Positions 228 through 8,457 of a stretch of DNA of 18,020 nucleotides are shown in pieces (within the stretch, counting starts at the first letter, position 1; the number at the start of each line of letters is the position of its first letter). The DNA lies in IMG/VR virus record IMGVR_UViG_2657245664_000010. One strand, 5' to 3'. The notes below the pieces were generated by a model. It saw only the letters and a list, made by a program, of their open reading frames with translations, made no database searches and was not told the origin of the DNA. The translations under genes were made by a program, and so were the position numbers. This DNA comes from a virus (taxonomy: Duplodnaviria > Heunggongvirae > Uroviricota > Caudoviricetes).

Positions 228-971
228 TCAGATTCCCTGGTGAGTAAGAATTTTACTTTCTGAACTCCTCTGAGGGTATTGACTTGGAGAAACACCAAAA
301 TAACGTCTAAATACATAAGTAAAGTATGAGACACTGGCATAACCACAGACCTTAGCTACTTTACTAATAGGATAACAACGAGTGCTGAGTAAATATTCAG
401 CCATTTGCATCCTCTCATCAAGTATGATCTTACTGAATGATACCCCCTCTTCTTTCAATTTCCTCTTTAGTAAACTTTCGCTGAGATATAATCTTGATGA
501 TATATCCTTAAGACGCCATGGTGCAGATAAATCCGTATGAATAATCGTTTTAACTTTAGCCCCTGTGCTTTTCAAACATCCAAACAGAAATACTCCAAAT
601 TGTTTTTCAGAAGAAAATGCAGAGAGACATGTAAAAGCAATAGACTCATCAAAAATTTCTATATATTCAGCACAGTGATTAGCCCAACTAATTAATCCTT
701 TAATTAAACTGAAGTCAGCAAAGTTTATTTTTAAATAAGATGGATATTCCCTACAATCAGAAATATCCCTTAAGTTATTAGCTTTCAAATAGCGACTAAT
801 AAACTCAGCGCCAAAATCCGCCACTATCACTCTTTCAGGATATGTCAGGAAAAAATCTCTATAGCTAGAGTCGACAAGTACAGATAAACCTCTATCCAGA
901 AACACACTCTCTTTTCCGAAATAAACATCAAAGGACTCCAAAATCAATATAACTGAACATGTAGTTGCCAT
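228..971 (-). CDS. AraC/XylS-family transcriptional regulator, AppY-like
   Basis: C-terminal double helix-turn-helix typical of AraC proteins (WRLKDISSRLYLSESLLKRKLKEEGVSFSKI... and ...GYASVSYFTYVFRRYFGVSPSQY). The N-terminal CSVILILESFD block resembles DLP12 AppY from memory. Very AT-rich gene and upstream region. The ORF track starts at a GTG at 980; the ATG at 971 is the likelier start. Confidence 0.75.
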   Translation of the reverse strand: MATTCSVILILESFDVYFGKESVFLDRGLSVLVDSSYRDFFLTYPERVIVADFGAEFISRYLKANNLRDISDCREYPSYLKINFADFSLIKGLISWANHCAEYIEIFDESIAFTCLSAFSSEKQFGVFLFGCLKSTGAKVKTIIHTDLSAPWRLKDISSRLYLSESLLKRKLKEEGVSFSKIILDERMQMAEYLLSTRCYPISKVAKVCGYASVSYFTYVFRRYFGVSPSQYPQRSSESKILTHQGI

Positions 972-1699
972 ATCATCCACCCAATTTAACTGAAACCAGG
1001 ATGAAGTATATGCATATAAAGTTCACTTTGCCAAACTTCAGTATAAAAAACCACATAAAAAATAGGGTGTGATAAAAAATACCGTAAAAATAAAGCAAAG
1101 GATTATAAATTCCGTTACAGTTACAAATGATACTAAAGAAACAATTCCTTAGAAAACCTTATTTACAGCCAATAAGTAAGACACTTATATGATATCAAGT
1201 TTTCATAAAACATAACTAGGCTAAATAGCTGCGCCTAATACCGCTACACTTTTGCCAGCCCATGTTTGCCTCCGGGTATTGACCCCTTCTCTACGCAACT
1301 TCAGTTCCCACCACCAACTTTGCGGCAGCTTTGTAGGATCAATGTCTAAAAGAATAATGGTGACCGATAAGAAAACGACTGAATAACTGCAGATTTTCGC
1401 TCGAAACCTTCCTGTCAGATCCATAGCGAATCAAGTGCTGAATGTCACAGTATCGAACAGAAAACAGTGACGATCTAACCCTTCAAGAATATTCTACGAT
1501 TGTTCTGTTTAGGAAAAGCAAGGCGGGAAGTCGGGAGATAAGTCATTGATAAAGTGGCGGAGAGAGGGGGATTTGCCCCCCCGGTAGAGTTGCCCCTACT
1601 CCGGTTTTCGAGACCGGTCCAATCATCAAACGAAACATAAAATTAATTCACATTATGAGGAAAAGTATCTTTTTTGTACTTGTAAATTCAAAGGCTTAG

Positions 1700-2569
<870 letters not shown>

Positions 2570-2645: not shown

Positions 2646-3059
2646 TTAACTGACCGAATCTGGCTGAATAGGCAGTGACTGTGTCCAGTCACCAGCCCTG
2701 ATATATGCACGTAATGATTTACGGTACTCAGTCCACTCTGTAAGTGCCGACTTCACTGCGTTCTCAGTTGTGTCAGTGTAGTCAGCATCCTGGATCTGAT
2801 CGTTCAACAAATCGATTTGAGTTGTTGCGCGAGCATACTCAGAGTTTGATATTGCCATATTTTCCGCGGCTAATTCGGCAACTGATTTTTCAATAACTGG
2901 CGCCGTGAAATTAGTACCGTCATATGTCCAGTTTATTCCTGCGGCAATGCCAGTAATATTAATGACGGTGTAATCCGGAAATAATTTTTTTGCATCGTTA
3001 TCTGAATTACAGACAACCGTATTTACGACGACATTATTTTTAATTAATGCGTAATTCAT
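2646..3059 (-). CDS. Phage tail fibre assembly (chaperone) protein, Tfa-like
   Basis: Sits immediately downstream of the glycine-rich fibre gene with a 1-nt overlap. The N-terminal MNYALIKNNVVVNTVV...WTYDG pattern and the C-terminal ...LTEWTEYRKSLRAYI... pattern are reminiscent of Tfa-type chaperones. Confidence 0.55.
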   Translation of the reverse strand: MNYALIKNNVVVNTVVCNSDNDAKKLFPDYTVINITGIAAGINWTYDGTNFTAPVIEKSVAELAAENMAISNSEYARATTQIDLLNDQIQDADYTDTTENAVKSALTEWTEYRKSLRAYIRAGDWTQSLPIQPDSVS

Positions 3060-3694
3060 TATGCAAACTCCTCAATCACGCAGATCCCAGGCGCTCCTGT
3101 TCCACCGGCTTTTAGCACTCCTGAAAAAGCGGTGTCATAAGCAGCACCTCCGCCAGCACCATATGCTTTGGCTGCAACACCATTAGCAGAACCAGCACGA
3201 CCACCTCCCCCCCAGAACGAAGCCGCACCATTACCAAATGAGTAATAACTTCCCTGCTGACCGTCACTACCATAGCCACCATGGATATTGATTAGCCCGC
3301 CAGTAGCTGTTCCATCTGCACCACCAGAACCAATTGACGGAGTGTTTACGCCGGATCCACTACCACCGCGACCGGCTGACATTCCATTAAATGTTGATGT
3401 CCCACCTGGATTATCAGCTGTTCCACCTGCTCCGATAACGACAGAAAAATCACTGATATCTTCAAGGTCAAAAATACCGATGCAGGTTGCGGCAGAGCCA
3501 CCTCCACCTCCAAACGCCGTCTGAGAAAATGATGTGGCGATGACAGAACTACCACCGCCACCTCCCCCGGTAAGAATTACCTTAATTTTCCGGGTACCCA
3601 AGCATTGTGCTGGCATTACCGATAACGTCGTTCTGCACAAAATCCGCCACGCCATCGATACTGAAACCGCTGAAGCTGTCACTGATGCAGTCAT
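3059..3694 (-). CDS. Glycine-rich tail fibre protein, C-terminal portion (5'-truncated or fused; true start uncertain)
   Basis: Long Gly/Ser/Ala-rich repeats (GGGGGGSS, GGGGGS, GGSGSG) ending ...GICVIEEFA, directly followed by Tfa. The 5' part of the ORF overlaps the upstream gpN-like ORF in another frame, which suggests a deletion junction. Confidence 0.5.
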   Translation of the reverse strand: MTASVTASAVSVSMAWRILCRTTLSVMPAQCLGTRKIKVILTGGGGGGSSVIATSFSQTAFGGGGGSAATCIGIFDLEDISDFSVVIGAGGTADNPGGTSTFNGMSAGRGGSGSGVNTPSIGSGGADGTATGGLINIHGGYGSDGQQGSYYSFGNGAASFWGGGGRAGSANGVAAKAYGAGGGAAYDTAFSGVLKAGGTGAPGICVIEEFA

Positions 3695-4124
3695 CCAGTG
3701 CAGAACAGGATGACATCAGCGTCTGCGCCGTCGCCACGCCTGATGTGGGGTAAGAGAGATCTCCCGCTTCGACAAACTTCAGGTCAAAGCGGACAATACG
3801 CCCTTCACTCTTCGATGTGCTGACCCGAACTTCCCCGTCAACACAGACTTTCAGCTCACCGTATGTCGGGTGGACAAGCGTGCCGGGACCGGGTTTATTC
3901 AGCGCGTCAATCAGGCGATCGCGCTGGTCAAAGCAGTCATCTCCCACCACATAAGCCGTGATGGACGGGCGGAAAGTGACTTTTCCCAGATCTTCGGTAT
4001 AGGGTTTGTCGCGGTTCGGATATTCGTGTGTTTCCACACGACGGCCGGTTCCCGCACTTTCTTCTTCAACCTTAAACGGCACACCTCGAAATGACGCATC
4101 CTGAAGCCTGTCTTTCCACGTCAT
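3582..4124 (-). pseudogene. Mu gpN-like DNA circulation protein, N-terminal fragment
   Basis: MTWKDRLQDASFRGVPFKVEEESAGTGRRVETHEYPNRDKPY... matches the remembered N-terminal domain of Mu N (gp43) family proteins. At about 180 aa it is much shorter than full-length members. GGAG ribosome-binding site before the ATG at 4124. Confidence 0.55.
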
Positions 4125-4133
4125 ATACACTCC

Positions 4134-4185: not shown

Positions 4186-4716
4186 TTAGCGAGTCAGAAA
4201 CAACGAATCTTTATACTTTTGCTGTTGTTCATTTAAATACTTAGCTGTTTCATCGCTGGCAAATGGAAATATTACCGTATTTTTAGGCATGGTAATTTCT
4301 TTTTTGTCCAGCGTCAGAGTAAACATAGGAACATACTGAGCAGAGTAACGCACCGCAGAAACGAGCTCTAGTTTAGACTCTTCAATAACACTTAAATTAT
4401 CCAGGCTAACTTTCTCTTCATCTTTTTTCTTTGACGCATTTAAAGTTTTTATTACTTTATTTAATTTCTCCTGAAAATCCTCCTTAAAGTTTTCAGGATT
4501 GCCGTCGACAACAAGAATCTGTTCACCCTGATTATCTGGAAAAATAATCTTTGCACTTATCAATTTATTTTCTTTATAAACATCACCAAGTTTTATGGCT
4601 CCTCCAGATAACTGAATAATATGTTCATCTTTAAAGGAGATGTTGCCAGAGATTATGAGAGATGAAAAAATAGCCGCTGCTCCAAGAATTACACTTGCTG
4701 TGATATAGCCTTTCAT
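4186..4716 (-). CDS. Hypothetical membrane-anchored or secreted protein (AT-rich cargo gene inside the tail module)
   Basis: 176-aa ORF with a hydrophobic N-terminus (MKGYITASVILGAAAIFSSLIISG), a Lys/Glu-rich body and markedly AT-rich codon usage compared with neighbours. It has its own terminator and an AT-rich upstream region. Confidence 0.55.
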   Translation of the reverse strand: MKGYITASVILGAAAIFSSLIISGNISFKDEHIIQLSGGAIKLGDVYKENKLISAKIIFPDNQGEQILVVDGNPENFKEDFQEKLNKVIKTLNASKKKDEEKVSLDNLSVIEESKLELVSAVRYSAQYVPMFTLTLDKKEITMPKNTVIFPFASDETAKYLNEQQQKYKDSLFLTR

Positions 4717-4807: not shown

Positions 4808-6640
4808 CTACCAAAATCGGGTATAGCCAACATCGTGATTTATATCAATGCCACTGGAGCGTGTTTCCGTAACCCGCATACCTGGTGGCATATTTATAAA
4901 TGATACCTTGATCTCACCATCAACTTTTGGCGCGGTAGCTTTATTAATCATGAAGGGATTCGAGCCTGTGGCATCGGAGGCGTTGTTTGCCTGAGCCGGA
5001 TCCACCGCCGGATAAGGCGTGTATCCCCGTGCCGGTATTTCCGTCCCATAAGCATCATAAGCACCCGCGCCCCACTGCGCCGAGTTAATGGTATCGACCG
5101 TGTCACCGGAACTGTCGGTAAACCATTCAATAATCGGCTTCAGCTTATCCCACATATCCTGAAACCACTTAACAACCGGTCCCCAGTTATTGATCACCAT
5201 CCCCAGCGGCGACCAGGCAAAAACTTTCTTAAGGAGTTCCCAGCCAGCCTCAAAATAAGGACCAATGGTTTCCCAGAGCTTCTTGAAATAAGGTCCGACA
5301 ACATCCCAGTTAGTGATAATTAATCCCGCAGCCAGGGCTATCGCCGTCGCAATCATGCCAATCGGCGTCATCGACATGATCCTGCTGACAATGCTGATGG
5401 CACTGCCCACGCCCATCAATCCCAGTTTCAGAATCGCAAGACCGGCAGCAAGCCCGACGACGCCGCGAATAACCCGGGGATTTTCATCCGCAAACTTCGT
5501 GAATTTCTCCCCCAACTCCCCCAGCCACTGCGTGATGTTCTTAGCGTCACCAGAAAATGCGCCGCCAATAGCCGCAAGGCCGTTAGTTGCGGTCCCCGTC
5601 ATTGCCTCCCACAGGTTGGACAGCGTACCAAGCTGAGCCTGAACACGTTTATTCAGGCTGGCCTGTTTATTCATCTTCTGCTGGATCTGATCGTAGCCAT
5701 CCTTTCCTTTATCGATTAGTGCATTGACCACCTGAAGGGTTTCGGCATCATCACCAAATATTGCCTTAAGTACACCGGTTCGCTTAACGTCGGTCAGTTT
5801 TCGCAGCTTTGCCAGTTGCCTGAACATGTTATCAAGACCGCCAAAACTCCCTTTGCCATCAGTAAAATCGAGCTGTACCCCGAGTTTCTGGCGGGCCATG
5901 ATTTTATTGACGTCCCTGATTTTCTTAACGCTTAATCCGGACTGGATAACTTTTCGCAGGGCATTACCTGCCGACTCCCCGTTCATCCCCATCTGATCCA
6001 TCATGACACTGATGGGGGCAAGACTCTGTGCAGCCTGAAGACCGTCCTTATTCACCATCTTCAGAACAGAGCTGGTTTTAGTGAAGAATGACAGCATGTT
6101 GGTATCGTCCACGCCCAGATAAAACGCCTTCTGAATTGTGTCGAACAGCCCCATCATGTCTTCTGAGGCCGTTCCGGTAGCATCCTGCATCTTTGCGGCA
6201 AACTCAGCAGCCGCTTCCGGTGTTTTTTTCAGTTGTACCGCAAGATAAGCTGTCGCTTTACCCACACCACCAAGAATGTTTTCTGCCGGGATCCCCTGAC
6301 GCACCAGCATCTGCATCATGTTCTGGAAATCAGCCGTTGTACCGGGTAGCTGGTTACCCAGGCCAATAGCCAGTTTATTGATGTCCTGAAAGCTCTTTCC
6401 AACCTCGCCGTTCGCATCCATCATGGCGACTTTCAGCCCGGTGGCGGCGTTTTCCTGATCAGCATAAGATTTCAGGGAAAGCGTCAGACCCGCTGCCAGT
6501 CCGCCACCAAGCGCCAGCCCACCCTGTGACGCTTCTTCCGCCTGGCGTTTAAATCCCCGGATTTTCTTTTGCATTTTCGACAGCGCGGGAGAAAGCCTGT
6601 CGACACCGGTGATCAACGCCTTAAGCTCAAATTCAGCCAT
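4808..6640 (-). CDS. Phage tail tape measure protein
   Basis: 610-aa protein with an alpha-helical, Ala/Gly/Leu-rich repetitive composition and a hydrophobic segment (VIRGVVGLAAGLAILKLGLMGVGSAISIV). It sits upstream of the gpN-like gene, as in Mu-type tail modules. Confidence 0.7.
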   Translation of the reverse strand: MAEFELKALITGVDRLSPALSKMQKKIRGFKRQAEEASQGGLALGGGLAAGLTLSLKSYADQENAATGLKVAMMDANGEVGKSFQDINKLAIGLGNQLPGTTADFQNMMQMLVRQGIPAENILGGVGKATAYLAVQLKKTPEAAAEFAAKMQDATGTASEDMMGLFDTIQKAFYLGVDDTNMLSFFTKTSSVLKMVNKDGLQAAQSLAPISVMMDQMGMNGESAGNALRKVIQSGLSVKKIRDVNKIMARQKLGVQLDFTDGKGSFGGLDNMFRQLAKLRKLTDVKRTGVLKAIFGDDAETLQVVNALIDKGKDGYDQIQQKMNKQASLNKRVQAQLGTLSNLWEAMTGTATNGLAAIGGAFSGDAKNITQWLGELGEKFTKFADENPRVIRGVVGLAAGLAILKLGLMGVGSAISIVSRIMSMTPIGMIATAIALAAGLIITNWDVVGPYFKKLWETIGPYFEAGWELLKKVFAWSPLGMVINNWGPVVKWFQDMWDKLKPIIEWFTDSSGDTVDTINSAQWGAGAYDAYGTEIPARGYTPYPAVDPAQANNASDATGSNPFMINKATAPKVDGEIKVSFINMPPGMRVTETRSSGIDINHDVGYTRFW

Positions 6641-6923
6641 GTGTGCGTTTCTCCTGCTCTATCCTGTTTGCCTGACTGACCAGCAAGGGAATTTCACTGA
6701 TCGGCATATTCAGCAATTCGAAGGGATTAATGCGCCAGTAGCTGGCGCAGTCAAAGAAGCGATCAGTGAGGTATTCAGCCGTCAGGCCTGGAGGAAAAAA
6801 CCAGCCACAAGCCACGCCGCTGCATTCAGGTCTGCCGGAGACATCTGGTCGACAGAGCTTTGCGGCACTTTCGCCAGCCGCACAATGTATTTCGACACCA
6901 CATGCGCCAGAAGTCTGACGGAC

Positions 6924-7355
6924 TCATCCTGATTCATCTGGTAGGGATACCACACAGCCGGGATCGACGGGCAGCAGTTCAGCCACTTCGCCAAATGCTT
7001 TCACTTTGTAGGCGTAAAAGTTTCCCCGCAGGCACAGACAGGTGACCACCAGCTCCCAGAACTCCTGCGGCGTCATATAGCCATTGGGATGCGTGGAGAT
7101 CAGCTTATGCAGACGTTCGCCAGTGGCTCTCTGCTTCAGGCTGCCGTTCAGGTGATACAGGTTGCAGGGCAACATCCCGACCGACTCCGCCAGCACCCTG
7201 ACACAGGAAAAAACCGCCGTCAGTCGCATGGCCCGCTGGCTGCTGATCTGCTTTCCGGTATAGGTGTCGTAGGACAACCCGATAGCCTCCGCCAGCTCTG
7301 CTGGCGTGGTCACCGGTGCGTCACTTTTTCGTTGAAATAATCCCGAAAAGAACAC
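6924..7355 (-). pseudogene. HK97-family portal protein, N-terminal fragment
   Basis: ...LTAVFSCVRVLAESVGMLPCNLY...GERLHKLISTHPNGYMTPQEFWELVVTCLCLRGNFYAYKV... resembles the portal N-terminal region. It is truncated after about 140 aa and begins at a GTG overlapping the HNH stop. Confidence 0.55.
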
Positions 7356-7639
7356 TATTTACCTCCGCCGACATGCGCTTTAGGGATGATGTGGTCAACA
7401 GTTTTCGCCTCACGCACCACACCAGCACGCAGACATAACTGACACAGGCCTTTGTCACGCTTCAGAATGCGCGTACGTATAACATCCCACTTAGAACCAT
7501 AACCACGCTGATGACGGGACTGTCCTGGCTTGTATTGCTTCCAGCCTTCGCTTTTGTGGCTTTCGCAATAACCTGACGGGTCAGTGGTGGTATGGCGGCA
7601 GCCGCGAACACGGCAGGCTTTTGGGGTTCGTGGGGGCAT
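7355..7639 (-). CDS. Phage HNH endonuclease (HK97 gp74-like), apparently C-terminally truncated
   Basis: CRVRGC...YCESH zinc-ribbon-like N-terminus, then CQLCLRAGVV...TVDHIIPKAHVGG, the first half of an HNH motif. The protein stops before the expected second Cys/His pair. Confidence 0.6.
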   Translation of the reverse strand: MPPRTPKACRVRGCRHTTTDPSGYCESHKSEGWKQYKPGQSRHQRGYGSKWDVIRTRILKRDKGLCQLCLRAGVVREAKTVDHIIPKAHVGGGK

Positions 7640-7760
7640 ATGTACTCCAATGAAGAAACCAGCGAAATAGCTGCCTTCATTCGTAGTAAACCTTTTTCAT
7701 CAACGCAGTAATGGATTCTTTGAAGAGTCGCGATCAATACAACTCACTAATGGAGAGACT

Positions 7761-7778: not shown

Positions 7779-8163
7779 AATTTCCCGTTTGATTTAATGG
7801 ACACTATAGAGGGACAGAATGCCTTCCTCACTCGAATCACATCAATTAAGGAGGTTCAACATGTTTCATTCCACAAGTCATCAGGCTGTAATTATGGCAG
7901 CATCAGTTTGTGCCAAAGACCTTTTCCGCTTCACTTTGAGCCTGATTCATTTCTACCTGACCGGCTCGCCTCTATCTTTTTAATCCCCGCTTTATCCAAA
8001 TTGCATTGCCATAATGCCGACAACACACTGACATTCAAATCCAGACTACCTCCAATAGTCTGACCGTACACCTATATAGTTTTAATTTTCATCAATCCAT
8101 TTAACTATCGTTTAATTGTTGTCACATAGGATTCTGCTGTTTTTAACAATACAGGATAATAAG

Positions 8164-8457
8164 ATGAAAAAAATGTTGTTTTCTGCCGCTCTGGCAATGC
8201 TTATTACAGGATGTGCTCAACAGACGTTTACTGTTGGAAACAAACCGACAGCAGTAACACCAAAGGAAACCATCACCCATCATTTCTTCGTTTCGGGAAT
8301 TGGACAGGAGAAAACTGTTGATGCAGCCAAAATTTGTGGCGGCGCAGAAAATGTTGTTAAAACAGAAACCCAGCAAACATTCGTAAATGGATTGCTCGGT
8401 TTTATTACTTTAGGCATTTATACTCCGCTGGAAGCGCGTGTGTATTGCTCACAATAA
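8164..8457 (+). CDS. bor: Bor lipoprotein (lambda Bor / Iss family serum-resistance lipoprotein)
   Basis: MKKMLFSAALAMLITGCAQQTFTV...ITHHFFVSGIGQEKTVDAAKICGGAENVVKTETQQTFVNGLLGFITLGIYTPLEARVYCSQ is near-identical to remembered lambda Bor. Lipobox LITGC. Opposite strand to the lysis genes, as in lambda. Confidence 0.85.
   Translation: MKKMLFSAALAMLITGCAQQTFTVGNKPTAVTPKETITHHFFVSGIGQEKTVDAAKICGGAENVVKTETQQTFVNGLLGFITLGIYTPLEARVYCSQ

Follow-up and report, generated by a model that had tools for sequence, protein, structure and literature searches.

Truncated HNH, portal and tail chaperone genes as probable deletion scars in a thrW prophage of Escherichia coli, and a recurrent break site in the portal gene

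The virus record IMGVR_UViG_2657245664_000010 (Caudoviricetes), a stretch of 18,020 nucleotides referred to here as the window, carries on its minus strand a short HNH endonuclease gene that runs into a short portal gene, followed by two short overlapping frames and a tail tape measure gene. The arrangement raises the question of whether these are complete small genes or the remains of larger ones and, if they are remains, how the genes were broken. A sequence-only reading had taken them for remnants, and the open reading frames that it listed are all present on the minus strand (Table 1). Profile searches with the HNH and portal families, run as that reading had suggested, returned truncated HNH, portal and chaperone proteins and not complete proteins of other families; the truncation of these genes is real and far beyond chance. 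We conclude that the fragments of the HNH gene (HNH'), the portal gene (portal') and the tail assembly chaperone gene ('TAC) are very probably non-functional scars in a cryptic prophage at the tRNA-Thr gene thrW, left by deletions at microhomologies. One end of one deletion also appears, from comparison of related sequences, to lie at a site in the portal gene that has broken repeatedly.

Truncated genes and an intact relative

Two complete E. coli genomes, SCU-118 from a human in California and CPE35 from a pig, match approximately 1.5 kb around HNH' and portal' at 100% identity, and the window as a whole is 100% identical to SCU-118, where it forms a prophage beside proA and thrW. A search with the interval from bor to HNH found four further genomes that are 100% identical there, among them BE311, which carries a complete prophage. 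Its early genes follow the lambda-type order exo-bet-gam-N-cI-cro-cII-O-P-ren-nin, succeeded by quuD, a porin gene, essD-rrrD-rzpD, iss and an Rz1 remnant. The late genes are HNH (116 residues), terS, terL, ymfR, portal (413 residues), protease, capsid, connectors, sheath and tube, after which come the chaperone (89 residues), the tape measure (610 residues), a 176-residue open reading frame, the DNA-circulation protein, the baseplate and the fibres. The window aligns with BE311 in colinear blocks of 99.85–100% identity separated by four jumps of 9,194, 2,610, 6,821 and ~4,850 bp (D0, J1, J2 and D3, respectively), which together amount to a loss of ~23.5 kb. Identity is 100% on both sides of J1 and J2, and the crossovers sit on TACC (D0), TG (J1), GGTA (J2) and a 5-nucleotide alignment overlap (D3). 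The comparison with an intact relative that the sequence-only reading had proposed defined the junctions at J1 and J2, and the BE311 positions missing there, 16790–19399 and 19824–26644, exactly hold the terminase-to-tube genes.

The HNH gene was thought to halt after the first half of its motif, with its stop overlapping the portal start, and both statements are borne out. HNH' matches positions 1–26 of the 47 in PF01844 (E = 1.8e-5), against 1–47 for the intact BE311 protein, and also matches phrog_144 (2e-33); the RefSeq annotation pipeline PGAP labels it "HNH endonuclease, incomplete, missing C-terminus". Its C-terminus reads ...DHIIPKAHVGGGK, with VGGGK following VDHIIPKAH at the point where the intact homologue goes on GGTDADCNLQSLCWPCHKAKT. 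The first histidine of the motif is kept (DH83) and Asn97 and His106 are gone; the zinc site [CxxC]2 is likewise incomplete, with C66-x-x-C69 left and C102-x-x-C105 deleted. The asparagine, the last histidine and the second CxxC are defining features of the HNH motif according to Xu and Gupta (PMC3592412). The parents of J1 read ...CCTAAAGCGCATG/GCGGCACTGAT in HNH and ...GTCGTCTG/TCGGCGGAGGTAAATAGTG in ymfR (the slash marks the crossover), and the window reads ...GCGCATG/TCGGCGGAGGTAAATAGTG; the shared sequence TG[G/T]CGGC spans 7 bp with one mismatch, the exact microhomology being TG. The HNH C-terminus, cos, terS, terL and all of ymfR but its last 17 nucleotides were lost at J1. The terminase genes, rightly noted as absent between HNH and portal, therefore fall inside the 2,610-bp segment deleted relative to BE311, as does cos, and HNH' no longer adjoins either. 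The fusion of HNH to portal stands, although it is not the direct one that had been described, given the 17 nucleotides of ymfR in between. The HNH frame runs in frame through the last five ymfR codons, so that the GGAGG, the GTG and the overlap of the HNH stop (TAG, 7357–7355) with the portal start (GTG, 7355–7353), which share a G as TAGTG, represent the native ymfR-portal junction. The HNH piece is ~90% identical to SfIV and SfV at the DNA level.

A portal gene cut after about 140 residues had been predicted, in agreement with the 136 of 413 codons found here, which are followed by seven out-of-frame chaperone codons (SLPDESG) and a stop at 6924. The fragment is identical to BE311 19398–19823 over 426/426 nucleotides and 99.8% identical to phage vB_EcoM-720R4. 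It matches PF04860 over profile positions 2–92 of 321 (E = 3.6e-22), where the intact BE311 portal matches 2–321, and phrog_12 (1e-37). J2 spans portal codon 137 to chaperone codon 35; the parents read ...GGCTGTGTGGTA/CCGAAG in portal and ...GAGCTGGGGTA/TCCCTACC in the chaperone, and the window ...GGCTGTGTGGTA/TCCCTACC. This deletion took the portal C-terminus, protease, capsid, connectors, tail terminator, sheath, tube and the chaperone N-terminus. No terminase, protease, capsid, connector, sheath or tube gene is present in the window, and PGAP annotates none in the source genome, as expected from the earlier remark that capsid, protease, sheath and tube genes were missing. A Chi octamer inside portal' is oriented to stop RecBCD arriving from the deleted side.

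'TAC matches positions 42–78 of the 79 in PF10109 (E = 5.2e-6; 2–78 for the intact BE311 protein) and is labeled "phage tail assembly protein, missing N-terminus" by PGAP. It has no start of its own, and the sole upstream start, a TTG at 6994, lies in out-of-frame portal DNA and is hence spurious; the chaperone content assigned to this frame is thus correct and its start is not. Deletion of chaperone codons 1–35 together with the start codon means that the gene can initiate neither of its products, short or frameshifted, at a start of its own. The slippery sequence occurs at the same place in BE311, and SfV has one at the corresponding place. The -1 extension is identical to that of BE311 and matches phrog_32181 (2e-41) over positions 9–63 of 63. 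Of the proposal that the two short frames are what remains of a chaperone frameshift pair, the pair itself and the truncation of the first frame are upheld, and the second frame proves to be complete rather than a remnant. The predicted -1 frameshift pair is thus genuine as judged from its sequence, minus its first 35 codons only. The stretch from chaperone to tape measure is 96.5% identical to SfV DNA (the tape measure being SfV orf14), and the plus-strand open reading frames of the interval gave no family match in Pfam or PHROGs. These corrections (the ymfR tail, the spurious TTG, and the intact -1 frame and tape measure) are minor and leave the reading of the fragments as scars unchanged.

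The two outer deletions removed further functions. D0 took exo, bet, gam, kil, cIII, N, cI, cro, cII, O, P, ren and the 5' end of ninB, and with the immunity and replication genes gone the remnant is without a repressor or replication genes, yet Q and the full lysis cassette are kept. At the junction, the DUF1317 gene is fused to ninB. D3 fuses the gene for the Mu-N-like DNA-circulation protein, at codon ~177, to a glycine-rich tail-fibre gene (PF21722), with loss of all baseplate genes. The element retains the integrase, Q, porin, lysis cassette, bor/iss and tape measure genes. It has the marks of a cryptic prophage: a tRNA/att site, an integrase, homology to a complete phage, and the loss of particle genes essential for assembly. 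The 64-bp att repeat is located beyond the window (in our locus L001), and the int-xis-att region is 97% identical to phage SfV at the DNA level; the early, Q, porin, lysis and bor/iss genes are DLP12/lambda-like. On SCU-118, PGAP classes the HNH endonuclease, portal and tail assembly protein genes as incomplete pseudogenes and also flags partial NinB, DUF1364, Rz1 and DNA-circularisation genes.

Junctions were counted over 5,426 complete E. coli genomes. J1 and J2 each occur in two of these (SCU-118 and CPE35), always together, one or other flank occurs in ~1,500, and no intermediate with J1 alone or J2 alone was found among them. The aligned sequences directly show where the junctions lie, how much was deleted at each, which microhomologies they carry and how the intact parent is arranged. 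The ancestor would have been a complete hybrid phage at thrW, with lambda/DLP12-type early, Q and lysis genes together with an SfV/e14-type HK97-like head and Mu-like contractile tail. In the SCU-118/CPE35 lineage, four RecA-independent (illegitimate) deletions at microhomologies of 2–4 bp would then have taken the ~23.5 kb, with J1 joining HNH codon 88 to the last five ymfR codons and J2 joining portal codon 136 to chaperone codon 35. The pathway was presumably illegitimate, microhomology-mediated deletion, and the deletions are probably recent, because no aligned block holds more than two mismatches. Judged by what they have lost, the fragments are most likely inert, since HNH' lacks the asparagine, the last histidine and the second CxxC, portal' is one third of the protein, and the chaperone is without a start. 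The element should accordingly be incapable of cos cutting, DNA packaging, and head or tail building. The scars are ordinary prophage decay of the kind seen in e14 of K-12, already flagged in RefSeq.

The same hybrid prophage occurs in E. coli LR-46 (locus L005), 100% identical from rzpD to HNH, with HNH codon ~46 joined directly to the chaperone. LR-46 has its own set of deletions, affecting rrrD, HNH to chaperone, tape measure to DNA-circulation protein, and the interior of the baseplate genes (L005 positions 2971, 4395–4402, 5211–5212 and ~7270). Its tape measure contains a patch of 1.2% divergence, which suggests recombination with another SfV-type prophage.

A recurrent break site in the portal gene

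The portal side of J2 (...GCTGTGTGGTA/CC, portal codon 136; nucleotides 405–408 of the gene) is nucleotide-identical to the break in beeE, the portal fragment of the K-12 prophage e14. The match of e14 DNA to BE311 breaks off at 19823 and starts again at 33103; the tetranucleotide at the break is the GGTA of J2, with another right-hand partner; by BLASTP, BeeE and portal' share 135/136 identical residues, and the alignment ends at residue 136 in both. The two fragments differ by 14 single-nucleotide polymorphisms (SNPs) in 420 nucleotides. We scanned IMG/VR for the 18 nucleotides to the left of the portal break followed by a non-parental base and obtained five true junction loci of three kinds: the e14 type, one joined at 34385 (L012) and one joined at 21943, in the capsid gene (L014). 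Strain XH993 also has a junction at the same portal site, there joined to sheath position 25407. The portal fragments of the window, e14, L012 and L014 differ pairwise by 10–14 SNPs per 420 nucleotides, which makes them separate lineages. Scans of the same kind served as controls at four places (two elsewhere in portal, one in the chaperone gene and the right end of J1) and gave no matches, and the J1 junction itself also had none in IMG/VR. Among 118 unselected IMG/VR loci with a portal start, deletions within portal numbered only two, neither of them at this site.

A protein survey, in which the 143-residue portal' frame was searched against 5.8 billion proteins, yielded 45 close matches that are short and derived from portal. 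Of these, at least 20 distinct fusions keep portal residues 1–136 (±1) and then carry differing tails, and at least 23 differently joined remnants share the portal break. On BE311, no fewer than 14 different plus-strand locations in the structural region are represented among the tails, and one tail (P0008) falls on the minus strand; several do not map to BE311. Three more proteins break 2–3 codons upstream of 136, one of which (P0031) maps to the minus strand, and the other portal breaks (49/50, 67, 99, 150 and 161–163) are represented by one or two proteins each. DNA confirmed the junction in five contigs (L195, L197, L200, L201 and L203), with shared sequences of 2–5 nucleotides (GTA, TACC, TGGTA, TA and TACC). 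All crossovers at the portal site fall within G/GTAC/C, with 1–5 nucleotides of shared sequence overlapping the stagger. As a control for bias toward the query end, a survey with the 94-residue HNH' gave breaks scattered over residues 57–111 and no cluster at 88. Scans of genome representatives and metagenomes for new portal-site partners yielded only e14-type junctions and chance matches in unrelated genes, and no clear cluster emerged when fusions retaining sequence to the right of the portal break were surveyed, the sensitivity being low because gene callers need a start codon.

The chaperone end of J2 (GGGG/TATCCC, an imperfect palindrome) is used by four junction types, those of the window, LR-46, L134 and L166; outside the window its left partners are HNH codon ~46 (LR-46), foreign DNA (L134) and 41 bp of sheath sequence (L166). 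Recurrent endpoints are also seen in sheath, at positions 25407 and 25447. On this sequence evidence, the portal end of J2 is not random and represents a nucleotide-precise, recurrent break hot spot in the palindrome GGTACC, with the chaperone end as a second, weaker one.

Two further rearrangements were observed. The Logan contig that encodes P0031 (L199) contains a clean reciprocal inversion of BE311 19815/17–23223/24 (contig positions 4400–4402 and 7808–7809), which covers the portal 3' part, protease, capsid and connector; one of its ends lies 6 nucleotides to the left of the portal hot spot, and 3 and 2 nucleotides are duplicated at the ends. In contig L197 (GCA_038072745.1), HNH is broken near position 1374 at the same nucleotide as in J1 (BE311 16789; window 7372–7373) with the other side kept, giving a fusion of YdaT to the HNH C-terminus. 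This match may be a coincidence, as HNH fusions elsewhere break at scattered positions.

We considered a range of causes for these breakpoints. Folding of 111-nucleotide DNA windows around the two hot spots gave z = +0.5 and +0.1, that is, no hairpin or cruciform structure. The SfV/BE311 cos sequence (...CCTGACGTCT/TCCGGACTGCCC...) is unlike either breakpoint, which gives no support to a pseudo-cos, and the tRNA-Thr core, considered for a secondary att site, is equally unlike them. A quasi-site for a Pin/Gin/Hin-type invertase (...AAACC NN GGTTT...) was rejected because the portal site, GCTGTGTGG-TA-CCGAAGC, has no similarity to e14 pix, whose arms are CCTTCTCCCAAACC-AA-CGTTT and AAACC-TT-GGTTTGGGAGAAGG. 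No insertion sequence or other insertion was found at the breakpoints in 163 related loci. The Chi octamer lies on the retained side, ~95 nucleotides in, the wrong place for RecBCD to set the endpoint. Under a model of best microhomology the observed partners rank 26th to 3,685th of ~5,700 windows by similarity to the portal site. The endpoints of J1 do not behave as hot spots, as the right end has no matches in IMG/VR and HNH fusion proteins break at scattered positions. Nicking by the cos-adjacent HNH enzymes occurs at AC^CG-like sites (PMC3592412, Table 1). An ACCG is found at two partner sites and, on the portal side, 1 nucleotide right of the break; this candidate was also set aside, because the sheath and chaperone breakpoints do not fit the geometry and a motif of 4 bp is too common to account for uniqueness.

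The sequence G/GTAC/C is dyad-symmetric; if it were cut with a 4-bp stagger, a G would follow the cleavage point on each strand, as in quinolone-stabilised cleavage by gyrase (PMC6379681; the strain used in that work is without e14). Gyrase-mediated illegitimate recombination has been documented (Ikeda and co-workers; discussed in PMC11164529), and the portal hot spot resembles it in its outcomes, which include deletions, one nearby reciprocal inversion and overlaps of 1–5 nucleotides. This is a resemblance only, and ordinary end-joining after any site-specific break would yield the same junctions. By its local geometry the portal break is therefore compatible with a candidate type II topoisomerase cleavage site, and a candidate site-specific nick that primes template switching would fit it equally well. 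A site-preferring break, for example at a type II topoisomerase site or a nick, would be followed by joining at microhomologies. We tentatively suggest, with less confidence than we would place in either outcome of a fair coin, that portal nucleotides 405–408 (...GCTGTGTGG TA CCGAAG..., with GGTACC at the centre), and likewise the chaperone site GGGG TA TCCC, may be enzyme-made break sites that repeatedly start deletions or inversions, which would also explain beeE. Such a break could come from strong cleavage by a type II topoisomerase, from a nick specific to one strand or from a nuclease not yet described.

Weighing the explanations

Certain observations sit uneasily with this account. portal' keeps a good native ribosome-binding site and could be translated, and its K-12 counterpart is annotated as a protein (BeeE). 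BE311 has an IS421 element that is absent from the window, at the position matching window 1568–1579, where the flanking alignment blocks overlap by 12 nucleotides, and BE311 is thus a sister rather than the literal ancestor. Other local sequences resemble the portal site more closely than the partner sites do, so that plain microhomology provides no explanation for the hot spot. Many of the proteins that support the hot spot come from uncurated Logan assemblies, yet at least nine junction types are found in NCBI genomes.

BeeE is annotated as a protein, and a fragment of the same 136 residues, preceded by the native ribosome-binding site and start codon, has arisen or been retained in no fewer than 23 contexts that differ in what it is joined to. 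Both facts would fit a BeeE-like portal(1–136) protein that has been domesticated and selected, for example as a dominant-negative poison of the portal rings of SfV/e14-like superinfecting phages, the recurrence being then a result of selection. We consider this improbable, because selection on a protein cannot fix the breakpoint to the same 4–5 nucleotides, the tails beyond residue 136 are unrelated and out of frame, and the fragment in the window is 100% identical to the intact gene, which leaves no time for selection. It is still harder to credit that the locus is a mosaic made by homologous recombination between phages or prophages, such as gene conversion from an e14-like remnant, instead of by de novo deletions. 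The prophage is indeed mosaic elsewhere, with a DLP12-type lysis cassette beside an SfV-type Rz1 remnant, and LR-46 has its divergent tape-measure patch; but a single intact prophage matches both sides of each junction at 100% identity, with only 2–4 bp shared at the crossover, e14 joins portal to another partner, and SCU-118 has the portal region in one place, so that gene conversion from another remnant is excluded for want of a second copy as donor. That the junctions are assembly artefacts, or the short open reading frames complete small genes of other families, has nothing but the small size of the frames to recommend it and can be practically discounted: the junctions are the same in the complete genomes of a human and a pig isolate, which were sequenced independently, and this excludes an assembly error, and the fragments cover part of each family profile where intact homologues match end to end, the plus-strand frames being without matches.

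Deletion at microhomologies thus remains the preferred explanation for the scars, and the scars in themselves indicate only that the thrW element is dead as a phage. The notable part is the breakpoint, since separate lineages including K-12 have broken at the same portal nucleotide and joined it to more than 20 partners. If a defined enzyme makes this break, the inactivation and decay of prophages in a very common family of E. coli phages would be partly site-directed and not random.

Features of the window and likeness to known systems

Immediately upstream of the Rz1 remnant are a complete DLP12-type lysis cassette and an opposite-strand bor/iss lipoprotein gene. The remnant marks an older mosaic joint between DLP12-type lysis and bor/iss genes and the SfV-type late region, a joint that is also present in BE311. 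Between the tape measure and DNA-circulation genes is a 176-residue open reading frame of ~38–39% G+C with a predicted N-terminal membrane segment; its only match is phrog_5485 (unknown function), with no Pfam family. The frame is also conserved in BE311 and resembles a moron. At the right end of the prophage (window 228–2569) are genes for a LEM-3-like GIY-YIG protein and an AraC-family regulator, between which BE311 has its IS421. A complete general porin gene (PF00267) stands between Q (quuD) and the holin gene, a placement like that of nmpC in DLP12.

Table 1. Coordinates of genes, fragments, junctions and breakpoints in the window (labels beginning with L are our locus numbers)
Feature	Window position	Strand	Remarks
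HNH' pseudogene, 94 residues	7355–7639	-	HNH codons 1–88 (7639–7372), then last 5 ymfR codons and stop (VGGGK, 7371–7355)
portal'	6948–7355	-	Native GGAGG ribosome-binding site and GTG start; portal codons 1–136 of 413; open reading frame 6924–7355, 143 residues
'TAC pseudogene	6782–6947	-	C-terminal 54 codons (36–89) and stop of 89-residue Mu/P2-type chaperone; open reading frame 6782–6994, 70 residues
Slippery sequence GGT TTT TTC	6794–6802	-	Intact; heptamer T_TTT_TTC, 6800–6794; 3 codons before chaperone stop
-1 frame extension, 53 codons	6633–6794	-	PPGLTAEY...RTHG, stop; complete; stop overlaps tape-measure ATG; open reading frame 6633–6815, 60 residues
Tail tape measure, 610 residues	4808–6640	-	Intact; PF10145, 1e-26; length same as BE311
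Junction D0, 9,194-bp deletion	13945–13948	-	Microhomology TACC; BE311 1022 joined to 10213
Junction J1, 2,610-bp deletion	7367–7373	-	BE311 16789 joined to 19400
Junction J2, 6,821-bp deletion	6948–6951	-	Microhomology GGTA; BE311 19823 joined to 26645
Junction D3, ~4.85-kb deletion	3595–3599	-	BE311 29997 joined to position equivalent to L008 14810
Portal breakpoint	6948–6951		BE311/L007 19820–19823; L009 10136–10139; L006 ~4422–4431; also in L012, L014, L195, L197, L200, L201, L203
Chaperone breakpoint	6947–6952		BE311/L007 26641–26645; L005 ~4395–4402; L134; L166
Chi octamer GCTGGTGG (coding strand)	7046–7053	-	Perfect; inside portal', ~95 nucleotides upstream of J2 break
Fusion of DNA-circulation protein to glycine-rich tail-fibre gene	3059–4130		N-terminal 177 codons of the DNA-circulation gene; tail-fibre part PF21722; joined at D3
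Rz1 3' remnant, SfV-type	7931–8059	-	PGAP; 89% identity to SfIV Rz1-HNH DNA
bor/iss lipoprotein gene	8164–8457	opposite
176-residue open reading frame	4186–4716
AraC-family regulator	228–980	-
LEM-3-like GIY-YIG protein	1745–2569	+
General porin, 385 residues	10172–11329	opposite	PF00267
tRNA-Thr (CGT)	16577–16652		Adjoins SfV-type integrase

The closest parallel in decay is e14 of K-12, a cryptic prophage with ymfN (oweE'::aaaE', a replication-protein/terminase chimera), ymfR, beeE and jayE. It shares with the window an SfV-type structural backbone, deletion scars that fuse genes, and a 136-codon portal fragment broken in GGTA. It differs in that e14 occupies icd, has an integrase of its own and continues from portal into the baseplate gene jayE, whereas the window element occupies thrW, has an integrase of the SfV type and continues from portal into the chaperone. 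The tape measure survives in the window, but terL and almost the whole of ymfR do not.

The Shigella/E. coli phages SfV, SfII, SfI, SfIV and vB_EcoM-720R4 have an HK97-like head, a Mu-like tail and integration at thrW, and the window follows their order of lysis, HNH, cos, terS, terL, small open reading frame, portal through to tube, chaperone and tape measure. These phages are complete and viable, whereas the window has lambda/DLP12-type early, Q and lysis genes and is without ~23.5 kb.

The intact HNH protein of BE311 resembles the cos-adjacent HNH endonucleases of the HK97 gp74 type in its size (116 residues), its N-terminal zinc ribbon, its HNH motif and its position beside cos and terminase, and it aligns over its full length to the 130-residue HNH endonuclease of PDB entry 5H0M (E = 1.4e-11). 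HNH' in the window keeps the zinc ribbon, the first CxxC and the DH of these enzymes and is without the asparagine, the final histidine and the second CxxC. The chaperone is of the P2 E/E+E' and Mu gp41 type (PF10109), located directly upstream of the tape measure with T_TTT_TTC and a -1 extension, and differs from P2 E/E' in that its first 35 codons and start codon are deleted.

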